From Campylobacterota bacterium (GTDB lineage: Bacteria; Campylobacterota; Campylobacteria; Campylobacterales; Sulfurimonadaceae), in assembly GCA_034661055.1 (NCBI GenBank), contig JAYEKO010000089.1, forward strand, positions 1 to 28,517: a DNA stretch of 28,517 nucleotides, read 5' to 3'. This document shows positions 6,207 to 27,136 of this stretch, in pieces. Under the pieces are notes generated by a model that saw nothing but the letters and a program-made list of their open reading frames with translations, did no database searches and was not told where the DNA came from. The translations under genes and the position numbers were made by a program. Every line of letters begins with the position of its first letter. Position 1 is the stretch's first letter.

Positions 6207-8366
6207 TTAAGCAATTATACCATCAGTTATGTTACTTGGAAGTTTAAAAGAGTCTTTTAGCCATGCAATACGTTCTTTGCGAATCAGTTTATCTTTTTGT
6301 GTATCTTTAGAGAAAGGTTTTTTCTTAACTTGAGTGATGAGGTAGTTAAGTTCATCGTCGGTTCCAAAAAAGTTAATGTAGTTGATAACTCCATTGTGAT
6401 AACGTTTCATATCTTTTTTATCTATGCTGGCTTTTATCTGTATTCGATAAGCAGCCCGTAAGAGAGTGCCTGTTTTTTCACTGCGACTTTTTAACTTAAT
6501 GAGTGAGCCGAGATCTTTTTTTATTGCTACTATATTACCTGCTGCAGCAGACTTTTCACACCGATAGATAATCATGTTCCACTGCTTCTCTAGTATTTCA
6601 AGCTCTTTTAAAATAGAGAGCTCTTTACGAGAATCAATTAGTTGAAAACAGTTATAAAGTTTGCGTTTTTCATAAAAATAGAAAAACTTCTTAACAGACT
6701 TGAATGTCTGATTCATCTGTTCATAAATCTTATGAAGGTGCGCAATACCTTCTATCTCATTTAAAATTGTCTGTGTAGTGGAGAAGTCATAGCTTTTAAT
6801 CGCATAGTTTAATGAGCTAATCTCTTTATCATAATCAACAATATGTTCAATGTATTGCGGAGTGTTTTTAAGTTGAGGATATTTTTGGATTATCTGCTCA
6901 ACCCTTGCGATATTGTTGCCCTTAAGTGCATTAGTCAGGTCACTAAAATATTTATGGTCTGAAAATAGTAATGAAATCAGAGGGCGTTTTTCAGAAATAG
7001 TGAAAAAATCATAGAGATTTTTCTTAGCAGCTACTTCATCATGTTTTACTACAAGCTCGTAAGCCTCGTTAAAACAGTTTTGCCACTTCTTCTCAAGCTT
7101 TTTATATACAGGAGTCATTTTAAGAAGTGGCCACTTTTGGGTTAGTCCATAAATTGAAGCGTACTTCTTCTGAGTGTGCATTAACTTCATACTCTCATAA
7201 TGTTTAAAGTTTTTAAACAGTGCTATGTAGTCATCTTTTTTTGCATTTTTAAAGGCTTTTAGCTCGAGCTTTGCCTCTTCAACTTTAAGAGAAATGAGAA
7301 GCTTAAGAGCGTTGGTATAACGCAGAGAAAAGAGAGTCTCTAGTTTTAAAAAATCTTTAGTATGGCGCAGTAGTATATTGTGTTCACTTAGCTTGTATGC
7401 TTGTTCAAAGTAGTCGTGTTCAATAAGTTCATTAAACTCTTTTAAGGGAAGCAAATTTACATGTAAAAGATCACCGTTCTCTTGAGCAATATAGATAGAG
7501 TTTTCTCTGGTACACACAATATCTGTAATATTGCTAGAGGTAGTAATGAACTCTTTTTTAATAAGCTCCATGGTTAGGATATTAACTAATGAGATGGAGT
7601 TGAATTTTGATGAAACCAGCACGAATGGAAGGTTGTTTAAAAGTACAATATGTTGAATAGAACCTATAGAGAGTGAAATCTGCTTAAGTACTCGATGCTC
7701 GCATATAGATACTTTCTTTAAGGTGCTTTCACCATTACCCTCTAAGAATGTATCGTTATTTATAAATGCAAGGGCATCAATTTTACTTCGACCATTATGA
7801 AAGCGCAGGCTTTGAGTGAGTGTGTTAATATTTAAAAGTACTACAGAGCCTCCATAGCCACTTGAAATAAAGAGAGACTTATAAAATGAAAAACTGCTGA
7901 CATAGCTGTTTTTAAAACCAATTAGCTCAGAAGCAGTGTGCTCTGGAAATGAGGCTATTCTGTTTAAAAAACTACCACTGAGCAAGGAGTACGTTAAAAC
8001 ACGTCCTTCTGATGTTCCTGCAAGAAGATAGTGTGACGAGGGATCAAATGAGATAATATCCAATGTGTGCCCATATGCATTAAAAGATTGAATAATCTTA
8101 TTTTTGACGGAGTTAATAATATGTACCATGGTGTTGTCATGTGCAAGGTAAGCAATAAATTTCCCACTCTCTGTAATAGAGATTTTACTCTTCTCAAATA
8201 GGAATTTAGAGTCTAGCTGTAGGGTTCTGTGTTCACCTGTAGATAGGTTTAAAAAGATGATTTTACGATTTTTAGTAGCTATGGCAAGAGTGCCATCGTT
8301 GAGTAGCTTAAGATAGACAATTGATGACTGATAGTTTTTAAGAGTCTCTATCTGATAGGGGTCCAT
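6207..8366 (-). CDS. WD40-like beta-propeller protein with repeated alpha-helical C-terminal region
   Basis: N-terminal ~305 aa has blade-like repeats (ISFDPSSHYLLAGTSEGRV, FISSGYGGSVVLLN, LAFINNDTFLEGN); Lys/Glu/Leu-rich helical C-terminus; no signal peptide. Confidence 0.75.
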   Translation of the reverse strand: MDPYQIETLKNYQSSIVYLKLLNDGTLAIATKNRKIIFLNLSTGEHRTLQLDSKFLFEKSKISITESGKFIAYLAHDNTMVHIINSVKNKIIQSFNAYGHTLDIISFDPSSHYLLAGTSEGRVLTYSLLSGSFLNRIASFPEHTASELIGFKNSYVSSFSFYKSLFISSGYGGSVVLLNINTLTQSLRFHNGRSKIDALAFINNDTFLEGNGESTLKKVSICEHRVLKQISLSIGSIQHIVLLNNLPFVLVSSKFNSISLVNILTMELIKKEFITTSSNITDIVCTRENSIYIAQENGDLLHVNLLPLKEFNELIEHDYFEQAYKLSEHNILLRHTKDFLKLETLFSLRYTNALKLLISLKVEEAKLELKAFKNAKKDDYIALFKNFKHYESMKLMHTQKKYASIYGLTQKWPLLKMTPVYKKLEKKWQNCFNEAYELVVKHDEVAAKKNLYDFFTISEKRPLISLLFSDHKYFSDLTNALKGNNIARVEQIIQKYPQLKNTPQYIEHIVDYDKEISSLNYAIKSYDFSTTQTILNEIEGIAHLHKIYEQMNQTFKSVKKFFYFYEKRKLYNCFQLIDSRKELSILKELEILEKQWNMIIYRCEKSAAAGNIVAIKKDLGSLIKLKSRSEKTGTLLRAAYRIQIKASIDKKDMKRYHNGVINYINFFGTDDELNYLITQVKKKPFSKDTQKDKLIRKERIAWLKDSFKLPSNITDGIIA
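6214..6222 (-). promoter_or_regulatory. Extended -10 promoter for lapB-like-rnhA-rnc-aroC
   Basis: TGGTATAAT on minus strand, 25 nt upstream of the TTG start, within the last codons of the upstream gene. Confidence 0.55.
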
Positions 8367-8833
8367 ATAATCTCTTTTAAGATTTTATTTTTAAATAGGT
8401 ATTCAAGAGTATTGCTGTAGTTTAATTTACATGTAATATCTTCATCTGATGATTTACATGTAAATTTTTTCTGATTAATATCTTCAAGGTTCATCCCAAT
8501 AGTAGCATCAAAGTTTTTAACATCACTGTTTAATACGATGATGCTATGAATTAATTTTAGGTTTTTTGTAGGATAGATAAGTGCCATCTCTTTGTCATTA
8601 AATGTAACTCGTATAATGGGACGTGGGGTGCCTGCTTCAAAAAAAGTAAATTTCTGTGCATCAAATCCTAAAAGTTTACTACTAATAATAGCAGTTTCAA
8701 ATGGGGTCTCACTATTAATGAGTCCGATGCCTTTGTGTGATATCTCAAGATTATAAGGAAGTTTTTTTACTTCACTAGAACATGCAGTGAAAATAAAAGC
8801 TGTTGCTATAAAAAATAGGGTTAAAGTTCTCAT
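8348..8833 (-). CDS. Lipoprotein, YfeY/DUF1131-like (161 aa; start revised from ORF track)
   Basis: MRTLTLFFIATAFIFTA|C lipobox; ISHKGIGLINSETPF, SIIVLNSDV, TIG, two C-terminal Cys and KEIIW resemble recalled E. coli YfeY (VSEQGVGELTASTPL, RIDVLDSDI, KIG, SKIIW). Confidence 0.7.
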   Translation of the reverse strand: MRTLTLFFIATAFIFTACSSEVKKLPYNLEISHKGIGLINSETPFETAIISSKLLGFDAQKFTFFEAGTPRPIIRVTFNDKEMALIYPTKNLKLIHSIIVLNSDVKNFDATIGMNLEDINQKKFTCKSSDEDITCKLNYSNTLEYLFKNKILKEIIWTPIR

Positions 8834-8860
8834 GAAAAAGTATAGCACTTTTTCATGAGA
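8828..8860. repeat. Perfect 14-bp inverted repeat (possible psr terminator or operator) containing an extended -10
   Basis: TCTCATGAAAAAGT-atagc-ACTTTTTCATGAGA; minus strand 8839-8847 reads TGCTATACT. Confidence 0.8.
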
Positions 8861-8871
8861 TTTAGTAGTTT

Positions 8872-10074
8872 TTAGTGCTCGTCTGCGTCGAGATTGAAGA
8901 ATTTTGTTCCTGCATAGTACATTGCAAGACATAGACCTACTCCACCTAAAGAGATAAATACCTCAGTAGTAGATGGCATATATTCAATCCACTCTGGAGC
9001 TAGTTGATATTCAGTTTTCTTTAGCATTTGAAGAGGCTTTAGTTGGGTGTCATGCACTAGATTATAACGCATAAACATAATTCCAACCATACCACTCATT
9101 GAAGCCCAAAACATTCCCGTAAGATTACGCCCACCGCTTTGTAGAATAAGCACAAGTGGAATTACCATAGCAAGAATTACTTCTGCCCAGAATGTCCAGC
9201 TTCCTAAAATATGTACTGCAACTTCAGCACGATTTGGCATACCGCCATAGATATCTGTTAACATCTTCCATGTTACAAAGAAGATTAAAATAGATAGAAG
9301 TAGCCCTTGAATTTTTGCTAAACCAGTAAGTAGTTTTGAAGCTTCTTCACCAAATTTGAGTTTATATCTAAAACCGTACATAATAAATGCTAGGAAAATT
9401 CCCGTTATAAATGCCGTTAAAATGAAGTATGTTGGGTAAAACACACCGTTTGAAATAGGGCGTGCATTTAAAAATCCAAAAACACTACCTAGATTTGAGT
9501 GGGCTGCAAGACCTACAAGAAGACCTGTAAGACCAAAGTATTTCGCCATTTTCATATCATTTTTAAGTAAGAAAACAAACTCAATAATCATAAATGTTAA
9601 GTAGACACCATAAAGTGTTCCCATCCACCAGATTGCTGAGGTAAGACCCGGACTTAAAATATTGTATATAAGCATAGTAACTGGGTGACCAATCTCAAAA
9701 GCGATAACAGCAAAACCAGCTAAAATAGTGACAATTGAGCCAAAAATAGCACGCTTAGAGATCATCATGTAGTCTTTAAAGCCAAAGACATCACCTAAAG
9801 ATCCAACAATACACAGACCCGTACTCGATACAACAAAAAAGATGTATACAGCAATTAGAAGTCCCCATGGATGTTCACGTGTTACACCGTAAGCGTGGTG
9901 ACCATGAGAAAGAAAGGTTGCAACACCAATAACAAACATAGCAATAAAAGAGACAACTAAAACTGCTATGAGCATATTTACCGGAGTCTTCTCAAAAGCT
10001 AAAAGCTCTTTGATTGAGACTTTATTATAAGGAATCGTTGATACGAATTCTTTTATATCTTTAATATTCATCAT
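8872..10074 (-). CDS. psrC: NrfD/PsrC-family membrane anchor and quinol-interacting subunit (~400 aa)
   Basis: PWGLLIAVYIFF, EIGHP, TSAIWW motifs; about ten hydrophobic segments; AAGGAGG SD before ATGATG (start 10074 or 10071). Confidence 0.88.
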   Translation of the reverse strand: MMNIKDIKEFVSTIPYNKVSIKELLAFEKTPVNMLIAVLVVSFIAMFVIGVATFLSHGHHAYGVTREHPWGLLIAVYIFFVVSSTGLCIVGSLGDVFGFKDYMMISKRAIFGSIVTILAGFAVIAFEIGHPVTMLIYNILSPGLTSAIWWMGTLYGVYLTFMIIEFVFLLKNDMKMAKYFGLTGLLVGLAAHSNLGSVFGFLNARPISNGVFYPTYFILTAFITGIFLAFIMYGFRYKLKFGEEASKLLTGLAKIQGLLLSILIFFVTWKMLTDIYGGMPNRAEVAVHILGSWTFWAEVILAMVIPLVLILQSGGRNLTGMFWASMSGMVGIMFMRYNLVHDTQLKPLQMLKKTEYQLAPEWIEYMPSTTEVFISLGGVGLCLAMYYAGTKFFNLDADEH

Positions 10075-10081
10075 GCCCTCC

Positions 10082-10645
10082 TTACAGTAGATAGAAAAGT
10101 TTTGGATTGGTACCAAGATGTGTTTTAAGCGTTTTATGCTCACGAACTCTAAGTACTTCAGAAATCTCACTGTTTGGATCATCCAAGTCACCAAACAGTC
10201 TTACCTTAGTTGGACATGTGTTTTGACATGCTGTTGTAGTCTCACCACGTGCAATACGTGTCTCAGCACAGAAGTTACATTTATCAACCGTCATTCCACG
10301 ATCTTCGACGTAACGTGCATCATAAGGACATGCATTCATGCAGTAGCTACATAAAATACATTTATCTACATCAACACGCACGACACTATTTTCATCGTAG
10401 TAGGTAGCCTGAGTCGGACATACCTCTTGACACGGTGCATCATCACAATGTTGACATTGGCTAGGGTAAAATGTATTTGATGCGATATTTAATAGAGGAT
10501 ATTGCCCCTCAATCTCACCAGTTCCTACCCAGATTCTGTGCTTATCGGCGCCCATGAGAATACCATTCTCCTCTTTACAGGCGACTTCACACGCTTTACA
10601 GTTAATACAGTTTTTATAATCGAGTGCCATTCCATATCTAGCCAT
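10082..10645 (-). CDS. psrB: Four-cluster Fe-S subunit of polysulfide/thiosulfate reductase
   Basis: CINCKACEVAC, CQHCDDAPCQEVCP, CILCSYCMNACP, CNFC...CQNTCP. Confidence 0.92.
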   Translation of the reverse strand: MARYGMALDYKNCINCKACEVACKEENGILMGADKHRIWVGTGEIEGQYPLLNIASNTFYPSQCQHCDDAPCQEVCPTQATYYDENSVVRVDVDKCILCSYCMNACPYDARYVEDRGMTVDKCNFCAETRIARGETTTACQNTCPTKVRLFGDLDDPNSEISEVLRVREHKTLKTHLGTNPKLFYLL

Positions 10646-10647
10646 AA

Positions 10648-13041
10648 TTACACCTTCTTAATTTCTACATTAGTTTCGTGCATTGCAGAAGCACCATAAA
10701 CCGGCTCTACAACATCTTCAATAACAGCATTGTCATTACCACCGTTTTTATATGCCCATGTTAACTCTTTGCTCTCTTCACCAAATCCATGAACAAAGAA
10801 GAGTGTATCTGGAGCAATTTTTTCTGTTGGATAGGCTTTAATGGTAACCGCTCCAGCAGAACTAGAAACCTCAATGGTATCACCAAAGGCAATGTCTTTC
10901 TCTACTGCAACACGTTTATTAATCCAGAGATAGTTTTCCATCATCAGATCTCTTAGTGCCGAGTTATTGGCAGTACCACTCTGAGTAAACTGAGCGTGAC
11001 GTCCTGTTAGCATTCTAAATTTTCCTTCAGGAATGACATATTCATACTCATCTTTCCATACCGGCATCGGGTCAACCCCTTTGCTCGCAAGGTTTGGAAG
11101 ATTACACTCAACTTTGCCTGATCTTGTTTTAGGTTTTCCACCATTAACACTATAGTATTTTTTCTTTTCAGGATAGTACTGATGTTCATTAGCAGAAAGC
11201 TGCTTGAAGTACGTGTCCATATTTGGATAATAAACACCTTTTTCCTTAAGTATTTCCGCTGCACCATGATAGTCATGAACGGCGTGTTCATTCATCATCT
11301 CTTGAGACTCTTGAAATGGTTTGTTAACATCAAATTCAGCAAATACTTCCTCTTCACTGCTGTCTTCAATCTCTACTTGAACCTCTTCGTCATATTTTTT
11401 TGTAATCTCAAACATCGGTTTAGAGAGTTTTCGAGAGAGACTACGCATAATATCAACAACCGGTTTGGAATCATACATTGGGTCAATAACTTTATTTCTT
11501 TGAGCAATGGCAGGTTCAACACCACCAAAAGTCTTAACCGGATCTGTTCTTTCTAAGTAAGTACACTCTGGTAGAACAACATCAGCGTACATTACCGTGT
11601 CACTTGGCATGGTGTCAATTGCAACAACAAGCTCCATCTTTTTAAGCATCTCTACAGTTTTTTGGCGATTTGGCATATTCATAATAGGGTTGTGCTTATA
11701 GATATACATACCACGAACATTATACGGCATTTTGTCCTCTAGGAAACGGTTACGCCATCCAATCCAAGATCCACCACCAGAGACAATAGCACAGTCATCA
11801 TAACCAGCTTCTCCACGTTTTTGACCTTTTTTCTTCTCTATAGCACGACCTAGTGCACGGTCATAAAGAGGTACAAGGCCCTCATGATGTTTTAGTTTTA
11901 ATTTTTTCCCAAAAACCAGACCACCTTTAGTGTCAATTCCACCACCTAGACCTTGGAAAATTGCCATAGCACGACGTAATTGGAAGTCATTTTTAGAGAA
12001 AGTACTTCGACGTCCTGGATAGTAAACAGACTTTGGTGCATGAGCCATAAACTCTCTAGCAATATCTTCAATATCTTTAGCAGGAATGCCTGTAATTCGT
12101 TCAGCCCATTCTGGCGTATAGTTATTTCCTAATACGCTCTCTTTGTATTCATCAAATCCATTGAAGTTGTTTTCAACATACGTTTTATCATAAATGTCCT
12201 CACTAATGACAACATGAGTCAATGCCAATACTAAGGCAAGGTCAGTTCCCGGCTTAATCGGTAGCCATTTATCTGCTTTTGCTGCAGTGTTAGTGAAGCG
12301 TGGATCTATGCAGACCATTTTTGCACCACGACCTTTGGTACGTTTGAAAACATCCATAGTGTCTGGTGTTACAATTGCCTCTGCGCGGTTCGCTCCAGCC
12401 ATAATAATGTATTCGGCATTTTCTAAATCTGATTGTGGATAGGCACCTAAAGTAACACCATATCCTGAAACAACAGTCTGTAGACATAGTGAAGCGTGGT
12501 TAAGCCAGTTAGCAGAACCAAAAGCACTATAGAATGTCTTAAAGGTATGTTCCGCCATACCTTCACCAGCACAAAATAGAAATGATGAGCGGTTATCTTC
12601 TTCTTCATCAAGAATTTTGAGTGTCTTTTCCATAATGTACTCATAGGCTTCATCCCAGGTGACACGTTGAAATTTACCCTCTCCCTTTTCACCAATGCGA
12701 ATCATTGGGTACTTCAGTCTGTCTGGGTCATAAAGTGCTTGAATTCCAGCGTTTCCACGTGGACAAAGCATGTTTTTTGACTTTGGAAACAGTGGATTTG
12801 GGTCGAGCTTGGTTACTACCCCATCCTCAACACGTGCAATAGCTGCACATTTGTTAACACACATTTCACAAAGTGTTGGCACTTCCTTAAAGTCACCTGT
12901 ACCTGTTTTAGTAGTAAATTCAGGTTTACCTTTTTTCTCTTGACTAGAGAAAAGGCTAGGAACGGCGACTGTGCTTCCGCCTAAGACAGTTAATGCAACA
13001 CTGCCTTGAAGAAATTTACGTCTTGAAACTTCAACATTCAT
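10648..13041 (-). CDS. psrA: Molybdopterin catalytic subunit, PsrA/PhsA family, Tat-exported
   Basis: SRRKFLQ Tat motif; CEMCVNKC...LCPRG [4Fe-4S]; HASLC putative Mo-Cys ligand; ADVVLPECTYLER; AAGGA SD before ATG 13041. Substrate (polysulfide vs thiosulfate) not resolvable from sequence. Confidence 0.88.
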   Translation of the reverse strand: MNVEVSRRKFLQGSVALTVLGGSTVAVPSLFSSQEKKGKPEFTTKTGTGDFKEVPTLCEMCVNKCAAIARVEDGVVTKLDPNPLFPKSKNMLCPRGNAGIQALYDPDRLKYPMIRIGEKGEGKFQRVTWDEAYEYIMEKTLKILDEEEDNRSSFLFCAGEGMAEHTFKTFYSAFGSANWLNHASLCLQTVVSGYGVTLGAYPQSDLENAEYIIMAGANRAEAIVTPDTMDVFKRTKGRGAKMVCIDPRFTNTAAKADKWLPIKPGTDLALVLALTHVVISEDIYDKTYVENNFNGFDEYKESVLGNNYTPEWAERITGIPAKDIEDIAREFMAHAPKSVYYPGRRSTFSKNDFQLRRAMAIFQGLGGGIDTKGGLVFGKKLKLKHHEGLVPLYDRALGRAIEKKKGQKRGEAGYDDCAIVSGGGSWIGWRNRFLEDKMPYNVRGMYIYKHNPIMNMPNRQKTVEMLKKMELVVAIDTMPSDTVMYADVVLPECTYLERTDPVKTFGGVEPAIAQRNKVIDPMYDSKPVVDIMRSLSRKLSKPMFEITKKYDEEVQVEIEDSSEEEVFAEFDVNKPFQESQEMMNEHAVHDYHGAAEILKEKGVYYPNMDTYFKQLSANEHQYYPEKKKYYSVNGGKPKTRSGKVECNLPNLASKGVDPMPVWKDEYEYVIPEGKFRMLTGRHAQFTQSGTANNSALRDLMMENYLWINKRVAVEKDIAFGDTIEVSSSAGAVTIKAYPTEKIAPDTLFFVHGFGEESKELTWAYKNGGNDNAVIEDVVEPVYGASAMHETNVEIKKV

Positions 13042-13121
13042 AGATTTTCCTTTCAACATTAATAATTTCTTAATAAAATAATTAAGACAAAAATAGTCCT
13101 ATTTATATAAGTAATTAGTTC

Positions 13122-13127
13122 ATTATA
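13122..13127 (-). promoter_or_regulatory. Candidate -10 box for psrABC
   Basis: TATAAT on minus strand 80 nt upstream of the psrA ATG, in AT-rich DNA (chance match possible). Confidence 0.4.
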
Positions 13128-13177
13128 CATACTATTTCTTATAAATAAAATAAAGTTTACTAATTTAAGTGAAAGTA

Positions 13178-13201
13178 ATCTATTTCTGAGAAGAAATAGA
13201 T
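13178..13201 (-). terminator. Hairpin after cytochrome b/DHC gene
   Basis: ATCTATTTCT-gaga-AGAAATAGAT perfect 10-bp stem, 13 nt after the stop, followed by TACTTTC on minus strand; AT-rich, weak. Confidence 0.55.
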
Positions 13202-13214
13202 ATGTAGTTTAGTT

Positions 13215-14345
13215 TTATTCTGGAATTTTAATATTAATGTCGTCTAAATTGCCATATTCAAAATCTTTATGGCATGCGGCACAATTGGAGCGGTCTTTTA
13301 TTGATTTTCGTTTGTAAACTGAGGGGTCAATATCAGCATGAGTATCTCTCCAATACATCACTTTTGAAGTAGATTTTGGATTACGATCACCAATAGATTG
13401 CATCATCTTGACAGAGACTTCACGGGTTGATTTTTCTGCACTATTGTCATATAAAAACCTCCTAATGGAGATGCGAGCAGCTTTTGAGATATTTTGATCC
13501 GTAATTTTTTCATTGAAATGGTCATCAAGATTATCCATAATACGCTTCCATGACTTCTCTGGAAGAATAAAAGGAGGATAGGTCTTGTGACAGTCCCCAC
13601 AGTCGTGATGGTAGGCTGAGTGCTCTTGCTCATAATCTATTAAAGGATATTTGCTTCTAGAGAAGAAATTATCGTAAGTGCTAACAATGTAATAAAAAGC
13701 CATGACGGAGAGAATAATAAATGCATAGGATGCAAAGAGACCAAATGGCGTTACTTTAGTATCTTCCCCCTCACTCTTTTTGTAACCGGTAATCATTGCA
13801 AAAATCATACTTGTCTTATGATAGAACTGCTCTACCAAGACACCCGAAATATGGATTACTGCCCAAGCTGCCAAAAAATAGGATGCATACATGTGAACCT
13901 GATATAGCTCATTCATATACATGTAAAAATCACTGTTTAAAAAAGCGAAGATGCCTTTTGCTTCCTGAATACCGTAGAGTAAAAGTCCGGAGGTAGTTAT
14001 AACAGAACCTACTGTAAGTACAAGAATAGTAAACCAACTTGATGCAGGATTGTGACCGGGAGGAATTTTACGCCATCTATCAATGATTTTTTCTTTAAAA
14101 TACCACACCAGTTCTGAAAATGATAGCTTGAAGGTATTGAATGTGGCATACTGAGGGCCAATAAATCCCCAAAGAATTCTATAGCCCAGCATGACACCAA
14201 AAATCCAACCCAGTGCTACATGATAATGAAGATACTCTTCATAAAAAGAGGTAATAAAAGAGGTAATAAAAGAACTTGCAATAATCCAGTGGATAATACG
14301 CGTGGAGATTGGCCAGACAAATACGTGTCCCTCTTTTTTATTCAC
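13215..14345 (-). CDS. Cytochrome b (b561/Ni-hydrogenase CytB-like) fused to diheme cytochrome c (DHC)
   Basis: GTG start; VWPISTRIIHW, YRILWGFIG, GHNPA, IHISGV, MITGYK CytB motifs; C-terminal CGDCH...YPPFILP..SW..IM..L..HF and SNCAACH. Confidence 0.9.
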   Translation of the reverse strand: MNKKEGHVFVWPISTRIIHWIIASSFITSFITSFYEEYLHYHVALGWIFGVMLGYRILWGFIGPQYATFNTFKLSFSELVWYFKEKIIDRWRKIPPGHNPASSWFTILVLTVGSVITTSGLLLYGIQEAKGIFAFLNSDFYMYMNELYQVHMYASYFLAAWAVIHISGVLVEQFYHKTSMIFAMITGYKKSEGEDTKVTPFGLFASYAFIILSVMAFYYIVSTYDNFFSRSKYPLIDYEQEHSAYHHDCGDCHKTYPPFILPEKSWKRIMDNLDDHFNEKITDQNISKAARISIRRFLYDNSAEKSTREVSVKMMQSIGDRNPKSTSKVMYWRDTHADIDPSVYKRKSIKDRSNCAACHKDFEYGNLDDINIKIPE

Positions 14346-14459
14346 AAAAACTCCATAAAAATTATAATAAGATTTGTAAGATTATCATCTATTGAGTAAG
14401 AGTAATGTTAAATATAAAAAAGTATTAAATTTTAAATAAGAAAAGTAGTTTCTTGAGGT

Positions 14460-14485
14460 AACAGCCTCTTTAAAAGAGGGCTGTT
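14460..14485 (-). terminator. Hairpin after cytochrome c gene
   Basis: AACAGCCTCTTT-a-AAAGAGGGCTGTT with one bulge, 6 nt after the stop; poor U-tract. Confidence 0.55.
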
Positions 14486-14491
14486 GTAGTG

Positions 14492-14893
14492 CTATTTGTT
14501 AATATTGAAGTTATTATAGATGTATGTAGCCATCTTGTCGGTATCGTAATCCATACCTTTTTTCTTAATAGCCTTATAGTTATGTTCCATAACTTCATGA
14601 TCAGTACCAGAAGATTGGTTTAGACCACCACTTTTAATATCAGTAATTGAGAGCTTAAGTTCATAAATCTCTTGATCATTAACCGCAGGCCCTTTAGGCT
14701 TACCATTTTTAGCAAGCTCTTTAACACCTTCACCCTGTTTACCGTGACATTTTACACACATATCAGTATAAACCTGCTCAGTAGAGTATTTATATGTTGT
14801 AGGAGCTTCTGTTGCTGCTTTTTTACCTTCACATCCAGTAAATACAAATAGTACTGATGCTGCTAATGCCATTAAACTAAGTTGTTTCTTCAT
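14492..14893 (-). CDS. Monoheme c-type cytochrome lipoprotein
   Basis: Lipobox FTG|C; CVKCHGKQGEG; Met/His candidates for distal ligand in DHEVMEH. Confidence 0.85.
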   Translation of the reverse strand: MKKQLSLMALAASVLFVFTGCEGKKAATEAPTTYKYSTEQVYTDMCVKCHGKQGEGVKELAKNGKPKGPAVNDQEIYELKLSITDIKSGGLNQSSGTDHEVMEHNYKAIKKKGMDYDTDKMATYIYNNFNINK

Positions 14894-14922
14894 TAATTAT
14901 TCCTTCTCTTTTTTTTTAATAC

Positions 14923-16392
14923 TTACGCTCTACCTGATAACATTCCGTAGATTGTCATCGGCTTAAGTGCGTAAACTTTAAGTAACCACCAAATCCAACG
15001 CTCTTGAGTTGGGTCTAATGGGAATGATGGAGTTGGTTTTTTAGTCCAGTTAAACTCAGCTAGCATTACCGTACCGATACTTGTAATTAGTGGACATACA
15101 GTATATCCGGCATATGCACCTGGAAGGCTCCCTTTTTTCTCCATAGTTGCAATTAGATTATCAACTACAACTTTGTATTGCTTACGCGCACTACCACCAG
15201 TTTTACCCATTGGAACTGCTGCAACATCACCAAGACAGAATACATTGTCAAATTTAACGTGTTTTAGTGTCACTTTATCAACTGGAATCCAGCTTTTTCT
15301 AGAACCTAGTTTTGAACTACCAATGTTGTCTGGTGCTTTCATTGGAGGTGTAATATGGATAAAGTCATATTTCTTCTCAATGTTTTTAGACATTGGAAGC
15401 ATTTCGTACTCTTCAATATCCTCATCCCACTCACCTTTTTCTAGCCAGTGATTTTGGAATGTTGCTACTTTAGCGGCTGTATCTACAGCAACTAGGTTAG
15501 TTTTGTATTCCCATTTAAAGCCACGAGTTTTAAACTGCTCGACAATTGCTTCATGATACTCTTTTACACCAAACATTTTACCACCATTTGGCAAGAATGT
15601 CATCTCAATTTTATCACGAACACCAGCTTCTACAAAACGTGCGTGTGCAAGATACATAATTTTCTTTGGTGCACCACCACACTTAATCGGAGTATTTGGG
15701 TGAGTAAAGAGTGCTTGTAGCTTCTCAGAACCTGTGTGAGCTTTTGCTTGAGCGATTAACTCTTGGATACCTTTGTAAGTATCTGCTGCACCATCTTGGA
15801 AGTAAATAGAGTGAACTCCATTTTTACCAACTTTATTACGAACCTCTGCATTATCCGCACCTGATGATGTAATAACGCCATCTAAACCGCTAATAGCACC
15901 GTAGTTTAGTACTAAACCTGTTGCAATTATTAGATAGTCATAGTTAATTGTTTGACCACCAGCAGTAGTAAGACTATTGTTGTCAGGATCAAAAGTAACT
16001 GCAGTATCTTTTACTAGTGTTACGCCACCTGGTAAAAAATCATCACGATTAAAAATAACGTCACCTGGCTCCCAAACACCAGCCCCAACTAGTGTTTGAC
16101 CTGGCTGATACGATACTGATTTCGGATCTGGTTCAATAACTGTAATATCTGGGTTTGAAAGAGAGTTTGTTAATCTTGCAGCAGTTGACATACCTGCAAG
16201 CCCCCCACCAACAATTACAATCTTTCCTTTTGCATCAGACGCAATTGCATCTGTGCTTGTTCCTGCTCCAGCCAATACGCCAGCTGCAATTGGAGATGCT
16301 GCCATAAACTTCATAGCGTCACGGCGAGACATCTTCCCTTCTTGTTTTTCAATTTCTGAAAGAACTTCGTCAAGTAGTTCATTTTTTTTCAT
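14923..16392 (-). CDS. sqr: Sulfide:quinone oxidoreductase (type II/SqrB-like) with Tat signal
   Basis: SRRDAMKF...AIA|S Tat peptide; IVIVGGGLAG FAD motif; YQPGQTLVG; PIKCGGAPKK and YTVCPL catalytic Cys pair; MLAEF; FPLDPTQERWIWWLLK. Confidence 0.87.
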   Translation of the reverse strand: MKKNELLDEVLSEIEKQEGKMSRRDAMKFMAASPIAAGVLAGAGTSTDAIASDAKGKIVIVGGGLAGMSTAARLTNSLSNPDITVIEPDPKSVSYQPGQTLVGAGVWEPGDVIFNRDDFLPGGVTLVKDTAVTFDPDNNSLTTAGGQTINYDYLIIATGLVLNYGAISGLDGVITSSGADNAEVRNKVGKNGVHSIYFQDGAADTYKGIQELIAQAKAHTGSEKLQALFTHPNTPIKCGGAPKKIMYLAHARFVEAGVRDKIEMTFLPNGGKMFGVKEYHEAIVEQFKTRGFKWEYKTNLVAVDTAAKVATFQNHWLEKGEWDEDIEEYEMLPMSKNIEKKYDFIHITPPMKAPDNIGSSKLGSRKSWIPVDKVTLKHVKFDNVFCLGDVAAVPMGKTGGSARKQYKVVVDNLIATMEKKGSLPGAYAGYTVCPLITSIGTVMLAEFNWTKKPTPSFPLDPTQERWIWWLLKVYALKPMTIYGMLSGRA

Positions 16393-16465: not shown

Positions 16466-18061
16466 TTAGTAAATTCGTTCAATAATTAGTTGAAGTGATA
16501 CATTTTCTCTATATTCATTGCGGTTTATTGTATAAGAACAAGTTATTTTATTGTTAAGTGAAAATGATACCTTTTGGCGAAAGGCCAAAAGTTCATGAAA
16601 TACCAGCTCATCGGGTTTAAGATGGAGTGTCAATCGAGAGTGATCTTTCTCAGAACCAAAATATTTTATATTACGAATTTCTGCATTTTTAGTAATAAAT
16701 TTTGGACGATTATTACCTTCTCCATAAGGCTCAAATTCTTCTAAAATACTAAGCAGTTCAAAGTCAATATCATCACCAGCTAACTCCCCAATAATCTTTT
16801 CATTTTCTTGAAATAGGGATAGGTCAAGTTTAGAAGCAGTAGCATTTATGGCGGATGTAAATGCCTCAAGGTTCTCTACGCTTAAAGAGAGTCCTGCTGC
16901 CATCTTGTGACCACCAAATTTTTCCAAAAGATAATCATGCTCTTTAATTAATTCATAAATGTTAACATTTCCCACACTTCGAGCACTCCCTTTGGCAATT
17001 CCGTCTGATATGCTTAATGCAATGGTTGGTTTAGAATACTTTTGACAAAGTCGTGCGGCTACAATGCCTACAACCCCTTCATTCCATTCTTCTCCTGCAA
17101 CTACTAAGATAGTATTCTGCTCATTTACATGTAAAAGGGCCTCTTCACTAACATCTGCCTCAATGCTTTTGCGACGTATGTTGAGTTCATTTAACTGCTC
17201 AAAGTAGTGATAGGCATCTGATTCTGTAGGAGATGTTAAAAAGTTAAAAGCAATCATGGCATCCTCAAGACGTCCTGCTGAGTTGAGTCGAGGTGCGATT
17301 TGAAAACCTATGTCTTCTGAAGAGAGCTTCGATTTATTTAAAAAATTACGAATAATAGTAGAAGAGGGACGACTTGAGTGCAAAAACATTTTAAGTCCTG
17401 CTTGAACCATTACTCTGTTAATATTAATTAAAGGCATTACATCGGCAACAATAGCTAAACTTAAAAGATCTAAATATTGGCTCATATCAACATTTACATG
17501 TAATTTACGTTTAAGTAGTGCCAAAAAGAGCCATGCGACTTGAGCACCACATATCTCTTTAAAAGGATAGTTACACCCAGGAAGTTTAGGGTTTACAATA
17601 GCGTAGGCATCAGGTAGAACTTCTGAAGGGGTGTGATGATCGGTAATAATTAAATCAATTCCACGCTCTTTACATATTTCAGCAGCGGCAATAGCGTTTA
17701 TTCCGTTATCTACGGTGATGATTAGGTCGGCATCAATACGCTCTAGTACCGTAGGTGATATACCGTAGCCATCTCTAAAACGGTTAGGAATTGTAACACT
17801 TAGAGGATAGTCTATCTCTTTAAAAAAGAGTGCTGTAATAGCACTTGAAGTGACTCCATCAACATCATAATCACCTACAAGAGCAATTTTTTCATTTTTT
17901 GAAATCGCATCTACTATTCGTTCTGCTGCTCTATCACTATTTAAAAGCAGTGTGGGTTCTGGAATATCACTAAGTTTTTTAAATACTCCATCAAAACGCT
18001 TGTTTAGCAGTTCTTTTAGAGTAGTTTTGTCAATACTTGGGTAGCTATGTGTTTTTGACAT
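16466..18061 (-). CDS. recJ: Single-stranded DNA exonuclease RecJ
   Basis: [34 protein letters not shown] motifs; start placed at MSKTHS overlapping the pyrG end. Confidence 0.96.
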
Positions 18062-19673
18062 GGTCAAGTGCGGCATTCACAAATGCTAAAATAGCAGGAT
18101 TTGGAGTCTGTAAACGAGATGTGAATTCTGGATGAAACTGTACACCTAAAAACCAAGGGTGATCTTGAACTTCAACTGCCTCTATAAGACCGTGAGATTC
18201 ACCAGTGACTATCATGCCAGCCTTTTCTAATGCTTCACGGTACTCAGGGTTGGCCTCATATCTATGACGATGGCGTTCATGAATTGTTGTTTCGTCATTG
18301 TAAGCAGTACGAAGACGTGATCCCTCTTTTGTATCACATGGGTACTCACCTAGGCGTAAGGTTCCTCCCATTGGTGATTCATGAGTTCGTAGTTCACTCT
18401 GTCCTGATTGATTAATGAAGTTATCAATTAAGTATATCAATGGATTTTTAGTTTCAGGATTAAACTCAATAGAGTTAGCGTCTTTAAGTCCTAGTACATT
18501 GCGCGCATACTCAACTAGAGTAAGCTGCATTCCTAAGCAGATTCCAAGATATGGAAGTTTATTGACACGAGCATATTCAATACTATTAATCTTTCCTTCA
18601 ACTCCACGAGAACCAAATCCACCTGCTACTAAAATGGCATCACAATCTCCAAGTAGTGTTTCTGCGCCTTTGCTTTGAACTTCTTCACTGTCTATCCAGC
18701 AGATATCTACTCTAGTATCAAGGTGAGCTCCCGCATGAATGAGCGCTTCGGTAAGAGATTTATAGGACTCTTTAAGCTCAAGGTATTTTCCGACAAATCC
18801 AACAATAACACGTTGGCTTGGAGCTACAATCTTCTTAACTAGGGAGTCCCATTGGGTCATATCTGGTTGCAAGTCACCAAGGTCTAACTCTTTAGCAATT
18901 GGTGTTAAAATATTTTGTTGTAAAAAACTCATTGGTACTGCATAGATTGTCGGTGCGTCAAGTGCCAAGATAACACTGTCTTGGGCAACATCACAGCTCA
19001 TAGCTAATTTCTTTCTAAAGGTTTTTGGTAGCGACTCTTCAGAACGTGCAATAATCATCTGTGGTGTAATTCCAATACGGCGAAGCTCTTGAACCGAGTG
19101 CTGTGTGGGTTTGCTTTTATGCTCCCCTGCAGCTTTAATATAAGGAATAAGGGTTACATGTATAAAGAAAGTTCCTGCTACGTCATCATCATGTTTCATC
19201 TGACGAATCGCTTCCATAAATGGAAGGCCTTCGATATCGCCAACAGTTCCACCAAGCTCAACTACAAGCAGATCATGACCTTCACCTGCTTTTTTAATAC
19301 GGCTTACAATTTCGCCAACAATATGAGGAACTACTTGAATAGTTTGACCAAGATAACCACCAGCACGCTCTCTTTCAATTACTGAGCTATAGACCTGACC
19401 GGTTGTGAAGTTACTGCTTTTAAGAAAAGAAGCATCTAAAAAACGCTCGTAGTTACCAATATCGAGATCGGTTTCTGCTCCATCTTCGGTGACAAAGACT
19501 TCACCATGTTCAAGTGGACTCATAGTTCCAGGATCAACATTAATGTAAGGATCAATTTTAAGCATACCGACTTTTTTGCCAGAGTGTTTTAAAAGGGCAC
19601 CGACACTAGCCGCAGTAATCCCTTTTCCTAAAGAGCTTAAAACTCCTCCTGTTACAAAAATATATTTGGTCAT
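18045..19673 (-). CDS. pyrG: CTP synthase
   Basis: [46 protein letters not shown]. Confidence 0.98.
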
Positions 19674-23953: not shown

Positions 23954-24880
23954 TTGAACAAACTATTAATGACATTGGGCTTTATAATGCTTATTATTTT
24001 ACTATTTGTCGCTCCATTTATTATTCCTGTCTCAGATAGTGAGCGTAACAAGACTTTAGTCAGTGTCTCAAACTTTCCACTTTATGATATTGCAACAAAA
24101 GTAGCTGGCGGCAAAGCTACAATTTTGATGGTAATACCATTTGGTACTGATATACACACCTTTGAACCAACCCCAAGTGACCGTGTGAATCTGGAAAAAA
24201 GTAAGTTGTTTATTTATAGTGGTAAAATACTTGAACCATGGGCCGCTAACTTTGAGCATCATAATCGTGTTGATATGAGTTTACATGTAAATTTAAAATC
24301 ATTGTGCGAAGATGAAGATGAAGATCATAAACACCATCACCATCACGGTGCTGAATCGGATCCTCACTACTGGCTTGATATAGACAATATGATTACCTCT
24401 GTTAAGATTGTACTAAGAGAACTTAGTAGTATAGATTCAGCATCAAAAACTTTTTTTGAAGCCAATGCCAAAGCGTATGTTCAAGAGTTGGAAGTTTTAA
24501 AAGAGGAGTATTCTCAAGCACTGTCTTCGTGCAAAAAAGATATGATTGTTGTCAGCCATAATGCCTTTGCATACTTAAGCAGTGAGTATGGTTTTCAAGT
24601 AACATCACTTAACGGTTTCTCAACCGATGCACTTCCAAGTGCACAGAATATGAAGGTTTTAATAGATACAGTAAGCGATCACAACATAAGTACCATCTTT
24701 TTTGAGCCTTTTAGCAGTGATCGTTTAATGCAGACTGTAGCTAACGAGGGAGATACTGTGGTGGCAACTCTACATCCGCTAGTTAATATTACTCATGATG
24801 AAGCCGCTATGAAAAAAGGTTATATTGCTATTATGAGGGAAAATCTTCAAAAACTCTCAACTGCTTTGGAGTGTCAATGA
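23954..24880 (+). CDS. znuA: Zn/Mn ABC transporter substrate-binding protein
   Basis: DIHTFEP, His/acidic loop EDEDEDHKHHHHHG, DPHYWLD, SHNAFAYL. Confidence 0.9.
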   Translation: MNKLLMTLGFIMLIILLFVAPFIIPVSDSERNKTLVSVSNFPLYDIATKVAGGKATILMVIPFGTDIHTFEPTPSDRVNLEKSKLFIYSGKILEPWAANFEHHNRVDMSLHVNLKSLCEDEDEDHKHHHHHGAESDPHYWLDIDNMITSVKIVLRELSSIDSASKTFFEANAKAYVQELEVLKEEYSQALSSCKKDMIVVSHNAFAYLSSEYGFQVTSLNGFSTDALPSAQNMKVLIDTVSDHNISTIFFEPFSSDRLMQTVANEGDTVVATLHPLVNITHDEAAMKKGYIAIMRENLQKLSTALECQ

Positions 24881-25641
24881 AGTTTAGTGTCCCTATTTTA
24901 GAGACAAAAAACCTCGATCTCTGTATTGGAAATCAGCATATTTTAAAAAACGTCTCTTTGCAGATTTTTAAAGGGGACTATATTGCTCTTATTGGACCAA
25001 ATGGTGGCGGAAAAACAACGTTAGTCCGTCTTCTATTGGGACTTCAAAAGCCAAGTTCTGGTGAGATCAGACTTTTTTCAAAAAAGCAACACTCTTTTAA
25101 AGAGTGGAACAAAATTGGTTATGTTCCTCAGCGGGCGACACAGATTGACTCCTCTTTCCCTGCAACAGTTTTAGAAGTTGTTCTCATGGGTAGGGCATCT
25201 AAAAGAGGCTTTTTTGGTATGGTGAGTGACAATGATTACCTTCTTGTCAATGAAGCTATGCTTAAAATGGATGTCCTAGATTTACAAGATAAACTTATTG
25301 GCACACTCTCAGGTGGACAGAGACAGCGTGTGATGATAGCACGTGCCTTGGCATCTGAGCCAGATATTCTTATTTTAGATGAGCCTAATACTGGCGTTGA
25401 TATGCAGTCCCAAGAGCGCTTTTACTCACTTTTAAGAGAGCTTAACCAAAAAGAGAAGATCACTATTGTTTTTGTAACTCACGATATTGGTGTTATCGCT
25501 GATGACATCGGAAGACTCTTTACGGTTAACCAGACAATGCTCACATGCAATAATCCAAAAGAGGCTATTAGTTGTGAGGATATGAGTCGTCTTTATGGCA
25601 TTGATGCTCATCTAATTCATAATCATCACCATGAGCACTAA
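24877..25641 (+). CDS. znuC: Metal ABC transporter ATPase
   Basis: GPNGGGKTT, GYVPQ, LSGGQRQR, LILDEP, VTHD; His-rich C-terminus; ATGA overlap with znuA. Confidence 0.92.
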   Translation: MKFSVPILETKNLDLCIGNQHILKNVSLQIFKGDYIALIGPNGGGKTTLVRLLLGLQKPSSGEIRLFSKKQHSFKEWNKIGYVPQRATQIDSSFPATVLEVVLMGRASKRGFFGMVSDNDYLLVNEAMLKMDVLDLQDKLIGTLSGGQRQRVMIARALASEPDILILDEPNTGVDMQSQERFYSLLRELNQKEKITIVFVTHDIGVIADDIGRLFTVNQTMLTCNNPKEAISCEDMSRLYGIDAHLIHNHHHEH

Positions 25642-25652
25642 GGTAAAGATTA

Positions 25653-26459
25653 ATGGAACTATTTGAAATTTTTCAATATGACTTTATACAACGCGCATTT
25701 CTTGCAGGAATTATCATTGCAATTATCGCTTCAGTAGGTGGCTCTTTTGTTGTTCTGAAACGTTACTCTTTAATTACAGAAACATTAGCACACTCTGCAC
25801 TTGTTGGTGTAGCTATTGGTCTTGTTGCTGGAGTGTCACCCATTCTAATGGCTGTAGTTGTGGCTCTTATTAGTGCTTGGAGCATTGAATATTTACGCTC
25901 TTTTTTTAATATCTATTCAGACTCAATTTTAGCTATTTTTCTCTCAGGATCTTTGGCGTTAGCTGTGCTGATTGTATCCTTAGCAGGTGCTTTTAATAGT
26001 TCACTCTTTAGCTATCTTTTTGGATCGATTCTTTCTGTGACAGAGCAAGATTTATGGCTTATGGCAGTTGCTGGTATTGCTGCGTTAACACTTCTTATAG
26101 GCTTTTATAAAGAGTTTTACTTCATAGCCTTTGATGAAGAGGTCGCAAAAGTAAGTGGTATTAGAGTGATGTTTTTTAATTTTTTGCTTATTACTATTGT
26201 TGCTATTATTATTGCTCTCTCAATTAGAGTAGTGGGGACACTGCTTATTGGTGCACTTATGGTTATTCCTACAGTTTCTGCGCTACAGTATAAGCAAGGT
26301 TTTACTAAAACAATTTGGCTAGCATTAGGTTTTTCACTACTCTCTGTCATTACCGGAATGCTTCTATCTTACTACTTCTCACTGCCAAGTGGAGCCACCA
26401 TAGTATTATGTATTTTGGCAATTTTTATAATTTCACTTCTTGTAAATAGAAAATCATGA
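25653..26459 (+). CDS. znuB: Metal ABC transporter permease
   Basis: ETLAHSAL.G, YLFGSIL, FDEEVAKVSG, VGTLLIGALMVIP, PSGATIV. Confidence 0.92.
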   Translation: MELFEIFQYDFIQRAFLAGIIIAIIASVGGSFVVLKRYSLITETLAHSALVGVAIGLVAGVSPILMAVVVALISAWSIEYLRSFFNIYSDSILAIFLSGSLALAVLIVSLAGAFNSSLFSYLFGSILSVTEQDLWLMAVAGIAALTLLIGFYKEFYFIAFDEEVAKVSGIRVMFFNFLLITIVAIIIALSIRVVGTLLIGALMVIPTVSALQYKQGFTKTIWLALGFSLLSVITGMLLSYYFSLPSGATIVLCILAIFIISLLVNRKS

Positions 26460-27136
26460 GAGTTAAGCAAGAATTTTCACGCTCCGCTTCAGAGTATGAA
26501 CAATATAGTATTATTCAGCAGCAGGTAGCACAAAAACTAGTAGATGACATTATGGAATTTCCCACTAAGATATTGGATATTGGATGCGGTAGTGGTGCTG
26601 TCAATAAACTTGTTAGTTGGGACCTAGAGCGCTATACGGCTATAGACTTTTCACAATCAATGTTAGACATTCATCCTAAAGCTAAAAATATTACATGTAA
26701 ATTGGCTGACTTTAATAGTAGCAGTTTTTTTGATACTATTGATGGTGACCACAATAGGGTCATCTCTGCCTCAGCGCTTCAGTGGGCGATAGATTTAGAT
26801 TATGTGCTTAAAGAGATCGCTAAACTAAAAACTCCTGTCTCATTAGCAATATTTACATGTAAAACATTTAAAAGCATGTATGAGTGTGCTGAACTTGAGC
26901 CTATGTTACGATGTTCAGATGAGATTATAGCAACTGCTAAAAAACATTTTGATGCTGAGTATGAGTTAGTTGAGTACACATTAAAGTTCGACACGCCAAG
27001 GGATATGTTTCGATATATCAAAAAAAGCGGTGTTAGTGGAGGGCGAAGAGTACTTAGCTATAAACAGACAAAGCAGTTAATGCAAGCATATCCATTAGAT
27101 TATTTAGAGTTTGAAGTACTGTTTATTCAAAATTAA
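26456..27136 (+). CDS. bioC: SAM-dependent methyltransferase, BioC-like
   Basis: F.R.A..Y....IQQQVA..L N-terminus, ILDIGCGSG, SASALQW, IKKSGV. Confidence 0.75.
   Translation: MRVKQEFSRSASEYEQYSIIQQQVAQKLVDDIMEFPTKILDIGCGSGAVNKLVSWDLERYTAIDFSQSMLDIHPKAKNITCKLADFNSSSFFDTIDGDHNRVISASALQWAIDLDYVLKEIAKLKTPVSLAIFTCKTFKSMYECAELEPMLRCSDEIIATAKKHFDAEYELVEYTLKFDTPRDMFRYIKKSGVSGGRRVLSYKQTKQLMQAYPLDYLEFEVLFIQN

Follow-up and report, generated by a model that had tools for sequence, protein, structure and literature searches.

A six-gene locus of sulfide:quinone oxidoreductase, cytochromes and a Psr/Phs-like molybdoenzyme in Campylobacterales, with a possible meeting point at menaquinone

The window analysed here is the whole contig JAYEKO010000089.1 (28,517 nucleotides) of a Campylobacterota bacterium (assembly GCA_034661055.1) of the order Campylobacterales, whose genome amounts to 1.9 Mb and is 83% complete; judging from its neighbours in a tree, the host probably belongs to Sulfurimonadaceae. 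Between positions 8872 and 16392, six consecutive genes lie on the minus strand, which the first-pass annotation had read as the gene for a sulfide:quinone oxidoreductase (sqr), a lipoprotein cytochrome c gene (cytc), a fusion of cytochrome b and dihaem cytochrome c (cytb/DHC) and the genes psrA, psrB and psrC of a molybdenum (Mo) enzyme, here called subunits A, B and C. All six open reading frames are present in that order, which recurs in many relatives and is not a product of chance.

The first gene, sqr (14923..16392, minus strand, as are all features below unless stated), encodes a 489-residue Pyr_redox_2 protein with a twin-arginine translocation (Tat) signal, the catalytic cysteines C238 and C433 and C-terminal membrane helices, which are retained according to the alignment to human SQOR. 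The FAD motif GGG and both cysteines are invariant over 42 aligned rows, as are R23 and R24 of the twin-arginine motif SRRDAMK (42/42). Typing was done by rank among solved structures and not in a tree covering every sulfide:quinone oxidoreductase (SQR) type: human SQOR is the best solved relative (221 bits, E 1.6e-64), FCSD reaches 65 bits and the type I SQR of Aquifex 53 bits. The protein is thus closest to SQOR/SqrB and not to type I, type V or FCSD, and by sequence it is a type II (SqrB-like) SQR. DUF3373 genes occur just upstream of sqr or of the Mo gene at several loci (L032, L033, L035, L102, L105, L120, L121, L152, L150), often accompanied by a small secreted Cys-containing protein without a Pfam family.

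Twenty-nine nucleotides downstream of sqr follows the gene of a monohaem lipoprotein cytochrome c (14492..14893; 133 aa) with a lipobox cysteine (Cys20), a CxxCH motif at 46-50 and an invariant Met102; it forms a separate family that lacks a close relative of solved structure. Across 34 distinct sqr-cytc pairs the gap measures 9-81 nt, and a hairpin (z <= -2.3 against mononucleotide shuffles, the criterion used for the relatives) lies downstream of cytc in 33 pairs and between both genes in one. Because the gaps are short and the hairpin comes after cytc, the two genes are predicted to form one bicistronic transcript. Where sqr stands without cytc, 10 rows have a hairpin right behind sqr (-10.9 to -18.0 kcal/mol), five of them with z <= -2.3. 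In genome G115, stops interrupt the cytochrome c gene behind sqr (C1:1317468-1317813), and some genomes carry a tandem dihaem form of the cytochrome in this place (L145:8078-8740; G151, G263).

The cytb/DHC gene (13215..14345; 376 aa) joins a Ni_hydr_CYTB domain to a DHC domain and keeps the haem b histidines (invariant His19, His42, His151 and His165) as well as two CxxCH motifs. It is a paralogue, at about 35% identity, of the CytB/mDHC protein of SHP operons; in 6/6 loci examined, the ~35% paralogues are located in SHP-sDHC-CytB/mDHC operons with a two-component system. For the SHP-operon protein, an electron path from quinol to cytochrome has been proposed in the part of the source available (PMC2909971).

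The last three genes encode a Mo enzyme. Subunit A (10648..13041; 797 aa from an ATG behind a ribosome-binding site) is a catalytic subunit of the molybdenum bis(pyranopterin guanine dinucleotide) type with a Tat signal, a CxxCxxxC motif, Cys186 as Mo ligand and the residues C157 and E160. Its twin-arginine motif SRRKFLQG is found in 99/99 rows at >=60% identity (duplicates included), so that both catalytic subunits of the locus carry the Tat signals noticed earlier. Subunit B (10082..10645; 187 aa) is an Fe-S protein of the PsrB/NrfC type, with 16 cysteines for four clusters and without a signal peptide. Subunit C (8872..10074; 400 aa) is an NrfD-family anchor, for which the list of open reading frames gives a TTG start at 10194, while an ATG at 10074 sits behind an AAGGAGG site.

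The nearest named families of subunit A are PhsA and the PsrA of T. thermophilus. The NCBIfam PhsA model is its best match at 512.6 bits, under the cut-off of 694; a canonical Campylobacterales enzyme used as control (L149) passes with 1057.5 bits. In a quick tree of 55 rows, drawn without named SrrA, ArrA or Wolinella rows, subunit A falls within a 43-row clade apart from the canonical Psr/Phs rows (SH-aLRT 99). C157 and E160 are invariant in 40/40 clade rows, and canonical Psr/Phs rows carry Ser, Lys or Arg instead. E160 aligns to H145 of T. thermophilus, which we take to be a funnel residue. Tandem or second Mo-subunit paralogues (45-55%) were seen at L012/L022, L021, L072:14341, L090:6206 and L100; in these, Glu replaces His four residues before the Mo-ligand Cys (5/40 rows).

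The structure model of the anchor (pLDDT 87.6) has ten long helices, compared with eight by hydropathy in the canonical-type anchor of L149. By profile and by fold its best match is ActC, with Foldseek TM scores of 0.80-0.81 to four ActC chains; the QrcD model gave 27 bits, its cut-off being 570. For PsrC of W. succinogenes, the accessible part of PMC8076601 reports which residues quinone use requires. Aligned via the L149 anchor, Y77, E127, S146 and the gate residue R336, each conserved in 43/43 rows, correspond to Y23, D76, S94 and R305 of the W. succinogenes protein, and its Y159 position aligns to N194.

Published criteria for PsrABC comprise the ABC order, Tat on A, CxxCxxxC and a Cys Mo ligand, and according to the same source, seen in part, sequence does not reliably separate Psr from Phs (PMC2500031). 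The window ABC is PsrABC-like in layout, and its sequence places it outside canonical Psr or Phs. The first-pass annotation was right about the SQR, the cytochromes, a Psr/Phs-like Mo enzyme and the periplasmic location, whereas the strict names PsrA and PsrC are unsupported, given the separate clade, the PhsA score under the cut-off and the ten-helix anchor.

Three transcription units are predicted, namely sqr-cytc, cytb/DHC and ABC, in agreement with the earlier suggestion, which had been drawn from hairpins at 14460 and 13178. The terminator-like hairpin ending sqr-cytc (14460..14485) has a z score of -2.7 and the one downstream of cytb/DHC (13178..13201) of -4.5 (against 200 dinucleotide shuffles for all window hairpins). 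The latter is strong in the window and reaches -14 kcal/mol or better in only 5/19 relatives. A third, 15-bp hairpin lies downstream of the anchor gene (8828..8860; z -6.2) and overlaps the TGCTATACT promoter box and the ATG of the next gene. A TATAAT -10 box precedes cytb/DHC (14361..14366; consensus match only), and a second one precedes ABC (13122..13127), being kept 72-87 nt before the start in 36/39 loci. A generic promoter scan gave 37 sites versus 37.4 in shuffles, no excess.

The -10 box of ABC is followed by a 29-bp palindrome, ATAAWTARGA-N9-TCYTAWTTAT (13078..13106, no strand assigned), a predicted repressor operator and the best match in the genome. With a matrix built from 38 sites before A and a score threshold of >=14, the operator was detected before 45/84 A genes and 0/31 recJ genes. 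Among genes outside the matrix it was found before 13/14 nifS and 3/4 tpx, and before 0/16 mrp, 0/15 dnaA and 0/14 folE. The three best sites of the host precede A, the superoxide reductase gene and tpx, with a weak one before nifS, and a shuffled host genome gave no score above 14.2; operator-like sites outside the window include G000 C53:13669, C2:20885 and C8:12230, L048:17377 and L053:19311. In several Campylobacterales families, the shared palindrome is predicted to define a small regulon that comprises ABC, nifS-nifU, tpx and superoxide reductase. G-U mismatches outnumber A-C among the palindrome variants, but the fixed sequence on both arms and the recurrence before nifS and tpx disfavour an RNA hairpin and favour a DNA operator. 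Its core presumably resembles IscR-type sites. The host has one three-cysteine Rrf2 protein (G000 C54:25262-25666), which scores under the IscR cut-off and is a candidate regulator of the palindrome; autoregulation was considered, and no operator site was found before the Rrf2 gene.

The synteny survey suggested by the first-pass annotation was carried out on the best 79 of 308 related loci given by a scan, of which 52 Mo-subunit loci with >=3.7 kb of upstream DNA inform upstream gene order; sqr positions in GC-rich relatives come from tblastn. The exact six-gene order is found in 27/52 loci and the same order with an insert in 1/52, and sqr lies within 10 kb of the Mo gene in 35/52. Five loci read sqr>cytc>ABC, with cytb/DHC behind a Tll0287 gene in the three long enough to show it, and in two the trio of sqr, cytc and cytb/DHC is elsewhere within 10 kb. 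In L065, ABC comes before the trio. Eight sqr-less loci read ABC>Tll0287>cytc with the same cytochrome c family. The Tll0287-type haem protein gene stands directly behind the anchor gene, before cytc or cytb/DHC, in L054, L056, L074, L076, L077 and L079, and in the same position in L095, L099, L151, L060, L067 and L070. Going by record titles, Sulfurovum, Sulfurimonas, Hydrogenimonas, Sulfurospirillum and Arcobacter are among the carriers, and several families have the position behind pyrG-recJ in common. The locus is real, widespread and modular. In G187 the whole cluster occurs twice with identical scores, 111 kb apart (C1:1199815-1208118 and 1310832-1319135), either by duplication or as an assembly artefact.

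Co-occurrence was counted in 250 genomes of the order Campylobacterales, each >=90% complete, in which linked clusters are present in 5 families. Orthologues of cytb/DHC were defined at >=45% identity, plus five at 39-44% accepted on locus grounds, and a close SQR at >=54% identity (71 genomes). The cytb/DHC orthologue is present in 34/250 genomes, all 34 with sqr within 9 kb and with the Mo clade somewhere in the genome. It occurs in 29/32 genomes that have both a close SQR and the Mo clade, versus 0/39 with SQR alone. The cytochrome c family is present in 42/250 genomes, 38 of these with the Mo clade. These counts support the view that, at the genome level, the cytochromes depend on both catalytic halves. 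By position, the cytochromes track SQR more tightly than ABC, and their wiring to the Mo enzyme is putative. Since the identity thresholds were set after the tables had been inspected and 15 of the 29 co-occurrences come from one genus, whose members are not independent, the pattern is strong without being a test.

The locus is also present in the cultured strain Sulfurovum MH2-6, whose genes peg.8-10 have been named PhsABC (MHY6962085-087) and described as a thiosulfate reductase with a Tat signal (PMC13609358, available in part, as for all MH2-6 data here). In the supplement, peg.5 is a window-type SQR by sequence and peg.2 is dnaN, so that gene numbering from dnaN and the peg.5 sequence together identify the same locus, with peg.6-7 assigned by numbering; this numbering agrees with the gene order of Sulfurovum loci. 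The accessible text lists peg.5 only as an FAD-dependent oxidoreductase, with the linkage unmentioned. Expression of phsA/B was 2.2-2.3-fold higher in elemental sulfur (S0) disproportionation than in growth on H2 and S0, in all three replicates, and tpx moved with them (1.9-fold). The superoxide reductase gene is not among the significant genes, and the sole listed cysteine desulfurase is weakly expressed and changes in the opposite direction; the supplement tables contain significant genes only.

From the genes, their cofactor and export motifs, their order, the hairpins, -10 boxes and palindrome, and their co-occurrence, we infer a scheme in which the three units meet at menaquinone, and to which we assign a probability of roughly 0.45. 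Here the Tat-exported type II SQR would oxidise HS- to polysulfide and reduce menaquinone. By analogy with the path proposed for the related SHP-operon protein, cytb/DHC may drain menaquinol to the lipoprotein cytochrome c and further to the cbb3 oxidase or another high-potential acceptor, thus serving the O2 and nitrate branches. ABC would act as a reversible polysulfide reductase/sulfide dehydrogenase, reducing polysulfide when H2 or formate supplies quinol and, in the presence of O2 or nitrate, oxidising sulfide into the same menaquinone pool. ABC would be under separate control by a repressor that also acts on nifS-nifU, tpx and superoxide reductase and is probably an Fe-S Rrf2 protein. 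The potentials of polysulfide and menaquinone are about -260 mV and -74 mV, respectively. As SQR and Psr running forward together would only consume proton-motive force, switching is the likely use, and the units are likely to work at different times, not as one cycle.

Several observations weigh against this scheme. The cytb/DHC gene and the Mo gene are not within 10 kb on one contig in 19/34 genomes (15 of one genus and G188 are clearly apart, and three have them on separate contigs of fragmented assemblies), which leaves A within 10 kb of cytb/DHC in only 15/34. The Mo clade is present in 64/250 genomes, 30 of these without a cytb/DHC orthologue; ABC stands alone, without cytochrome or sqr, in 9/52 loci, and G119 and G199 have sqr-cytc but not the Mo clade. 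The operator reaches the threshold before 0/55 sqr and 0/42 cytb/DHC genes. Since it precedes ABC and is absent before sqr, ABC is predicted to be regulated apart from sqr, alongside Fe-S and oxidant-defence genes. Dihaem cytochromes of the DHC type have haem potentials near -240/-310 mV. They are likewise called low-potential in a title cited in PMC2909971, and with such haems the flow from quinol to cytochrome fits poorly. Furthermore, no biochemically characterised member of the window Mo clade was found in the literature searched.

Some published transcript data point the same way. When ABC changes in MH2-6, the significantly changed genes do not include peg.5-7 (PMC13609358). For S. indicum, the available portion of PMC10045233 reports that psrA3 rises 4-7-fold in S0 reduction and nifS falls, which favours a reductive role there. 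In favour of the scheme are the phsA/B and tpx changes in MH2-6 and, in S. indicum, a 3.5-fold lower expression of a cytb/DHC gene in S0 reduction relative to nitrate reduction; this gene (RS00035) occupies the corresponding position, seventh from the origin by tag (PMC10045233). The psrA3 primers translate to motifs of the wider window clade and fit a sister subclade. By tag, this PsrA3B3C3 (Group III) is distant from cytb/DHC, and it is called cytoplasmic, in contrast to the close window rows with their twin-arginine motif (PMC10045233). In Black Sea Sulfurimonas, psrABC transcripts and sqr transcripts of mixed type do not track each other in the part of the source available (PMC9122950). 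The first-pass idea of a conserved module accordingly stands for the linkage and for the genome-level dependence of the cytochromes on both halves, and not for a single co-regulation, with the operator only before ABC and peg.5-7 unlisted in MH2-6.

Much of this would be expected if the genes merely shared an address, the trio being a sulfide-oxidising or detoxifying unit and ABC an ordinary sulfur reductase fed by H2 or formate. The adjacency would then go back to an old arrangement behind pyrG-recJ, and the co-occurrence to lifestyle and joint inheritance. The frequent separation of the trio from ABC, the separate promoter and operator, the lack of common expression in MH2-6 and the induction of the sister-clade psrA3 all agree with this explanation, as do L069, L072, L087 and L093, in which recJ immediately precedes ABC and the trio is missing. 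It does not readily account for the absence of cytb/DHC from the 39 genomes with SQR but no Mo clade, although the gene always stands beside sqr. Moreover, the cytochrome c family follows ABC in the eight loci where sqr is absent, and the linkage outlasts rearrangement, both in the five loci with cytb/DHC moved behind ABC and Tll0287 and in L065. We regard separate jobs as rather unlikely, second in probability to the menaquinone scheme.

A further reading, which we consider distinctly unlikely, makes the Mo enzyme a dedicated, energy-conserving sulfide:menaquinone oxidoreductase. Its ten-helix Qrc/ActC-like anchor would take up cytoplasmic protons, and the clade-specific Cys/Glu loop would handle sulfane sulfur. 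Together with SQR-cytochrome c and cytb/DHC, the enzyme could make up a chain that oxidises sulfide independently of Sox and that an IscR-like sensor switches on in response to oxidative or polysulfide stress. If so, many Campylobacterota enzymes counted as Psr/Phs sulfur reductases would be oxidative, and ABC would be part of the missing Campylobacterota route of S0 disproportionation.

Less probable again is a Mo enzyme that chiefly reduces thiosulfate, the role annotated in MH2-6, or serves another oxyanion, with only an indirect tie to SQR. PhsA is indeed the best NCBIfam match, Psr and Phs are hard to tell apart by sequence, and the invariant C157/E160 of the funnel loop, in place of the Lys, Arg or Ser of canonical rows, may mean a different substrate. 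In MH2-6, phsABC was reported up in thiosulfate disproportionation; however, this effect rests on one replicate (685, 601, 3079 vs 725, 947, 925), in contrast to the S0 effect seen in all three (PMC13609358). The anchor is of the NrfD type and not a cytochrome b PhsC. As for other oxyanions, the ArrA model gives 234.5 bits where 1600 are needed to pass, and in the alignment E160/G161 stand opposite the ArrA Arg/Tyr loop.

Direct electron transfer from SQR to cytochrome c, in an FCSD-like manner with cytb/DHC returning the electrons to the quinone pool for ABC, appears very unlikely, though not the least probable reading. The bicistronic arrangement in 33/34 pairs, a conserved acidic hairpin in SQR and a basic patch beside the cytochrome haem would suit such a transfer, and so would a low-potential DHC for flow from cytochrome to quinone. 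Nevertheless, the C-terminal membrane helices that quinone-using type II SQOR possesses are retained in SQR, its score with SQOR is far higher than with FCSD, and 37/39 SQR carriers that have no Mo clade lack the cytochrome. A role of the acidic hairpin in cytochrome docking was rejected, as the hairpin is also present in 9/9 SQR rows without the cytochrome.

Least probable of all is that the six genes form an S0/polysulfide disproportionation engine, despite the induction of ABC in MH2-6 and a pathway in Campylobacterales that is described as unresolved in the accessible parts of PMC9948710 and PMC12998232: no known route from S0 to sulfite or sulfate is represented among the six genes, induction does not extend to the upstream genes listed for MH2-6, SQR-to-Psr coupling, already proposed as an internal sulfur cycle, was noted to yield little energy (PMC4674564, seen in part), and SoxB, SoxC and SorA were found neither in the 83% complete host genome nor above the cut-off in three congeners, so that disproportionation by these genes alone, as floated initially, is unsupported.

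The host encodes a hydrogenase, bc1, cbb3, NapA and a second SQR. It also carries two further Psr/Phs-like Mo enzymes, one adjoining two rhodaneses, and ABC is therefore not required as the sole S0 reductase. One of them (L155:2363-10038, on host contig C57 of G000) has a cytochrome b anchor and lies with two periplasmic rhodaneses and a porin; it is a candidate for the main S0 reductase of the host. At L156:4135-9085 (C44), a Tat Mo enzyme of 1131 aa is encoded in the gene order B-C-A together with an NrfD anchor; it falls under every NCBIfam cut-off. At L158:3650-7280 (C90), the small subunit of the hydrogenase is joined to a portion of pyridine-nucleotide oxidoreductase type and to a BFD domain.

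Five congeners of the host were compared (genomes 80-97% complete). In all five, sqr is followed directly by the lipoprotein gene, and no genome match to A or cytb/DHC was obtained; the four congeners searched for the cytochrome c family have no member. The G+C content of the cluster equals that of its flanks. The host SQR shows 78-81% identity to other genera versus 72-76% to congeners, and a topology forcing it together with four congeners was not rejected (p-AU 0.088). Loss of the block from the congeners is a simpler reading than horizontal gain by the host.

Upstream, recJ (16466..18076) lies outside the module and, with pyrG, is the conserved upstream neighbour of sqr in several families. 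On the other side, and in correction of the first-pass annotation, a lipoprotein gene (8348-8833) and a WD40-like gene (6207-8366) stand between the six-gene cluster and lapB-rnhA-rnc-aroC. The TGCTATACT box of the lipoprotein gene, located 6-7 nt ahead of the ATG, is retained in four congeners (L106-L109), and the transcript of this gene is likely leaderless. The WD40-like protein (719 aa) has a 22% paralogue on host contig C35; its gene is not at the matching site in five congeners and stands behind the locus in other genera (L030, L092, L094, L100, L118, L152). Elsewhere, the window carries ordinary genes for a 7TMR-DISM histidine kinase with its response regulator, and an operon for a metal ABC transporter with a methyltransferase gene behind it (514-2969 and 23954-27136).

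Each protein class, the Tat-bearing type II SQR, the idea of SQR-Psr coupling, a bidirectional Psr in Sulfurospirillum and, in a transcriptome, the ABC genes of this locus are already known from sources available in part. As every part and the coupling idea have been published, the locus is not a new kind of system. In the literature searched, which included few subscription journals, we found no description of the linkage between the six genes, of the sqr-cytc bicistron, of cytb/DHC occurring conditionally, of a ten-helix anchor in the window clade or of the shared operator. Vents, redoxclines and sulfidic aquifers are dominated by Sulfurimonas, Sulfurovum and related bacteria, whose means of reducing, oxidising or disproportionating S0 in the absence of Dsr are described as open (PMC9948710, PMC12998232). 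With this locus, the cell can probably switch between oxidising sulfide and reducing sulfur according to conditions, without doing both together. Metagenome studies count the window clade as psrA/phsA, a marker of sulfur reduction, which is unsafe if the clade is reversible or oxidative. With the locus present in MH2-6, its direction, wiring and operator are testable now.

In comparison with known systems, the window SQR shares its catalytic cysteines and membrane helices with Campylobacterota SqrB and human SQOR. Tat-bearing type II SQRs have been reported in Campylobacterota, and the co-transcribed lipoprotein cytochrome c is a feature of the window that goes unmentioned in the accessible part of that source (PMC4584964). 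FccAB differs in its FccB-type flavoprotein, to which the window SQR is similar only in an N-terminal best FCSD stretch of 65 bits. The SHP operon has in common with the window a fusion of a quinone-type cytochrome b with DHC; the window lacks SHP, the soluble DHC and the sensor, and has a class I lipoprotein cytochrome c as partner.

PsrABC of W. succinogenes and T. thermophilus (PDB 2VPW) shares the ABC order, Tat only on A, the Cys Mo ligand, a four-cluster B and an NrfD-family anchor. It differs from the window enzyme in the clade of subunit A, which in the window scores under the PhsA/PsrA model cut-off and has the C157/E160 loop, in its eight-helix anchor, and in its neighbours, which in the window are SQR and cytochromes. 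In the Salmonella type of PhsABC, the reference PhsC is a cytochrome b subunit, unlike the NrfD anchor here. Respiratory arsenate reductase Arr is set apart by its model cut-off and its (C)AB gene order. Alternative complex III ActC and QrcD have the ten-helix NrfD fold of the window anchor at 12-15% identity; the window lacks ActA, ActE, ActF and QrcA, and its subunit A has a complete Mo site, in contrast to the cofactor-less ActB, so that with alternative complex III only the ActC-like fold is common. QrcD is the sole NrfD-family member shown to be electrogenic, according to the available part of PMC13059093. Closest in proposed function is the bidirectional Psr/sulfide dehydrogenase suggested for Sulfurospirillum (SMUL_3273-3275, as cited in PMC4794192, seen in part), which by analogy would play the same role as the one we propose for the window ABC.

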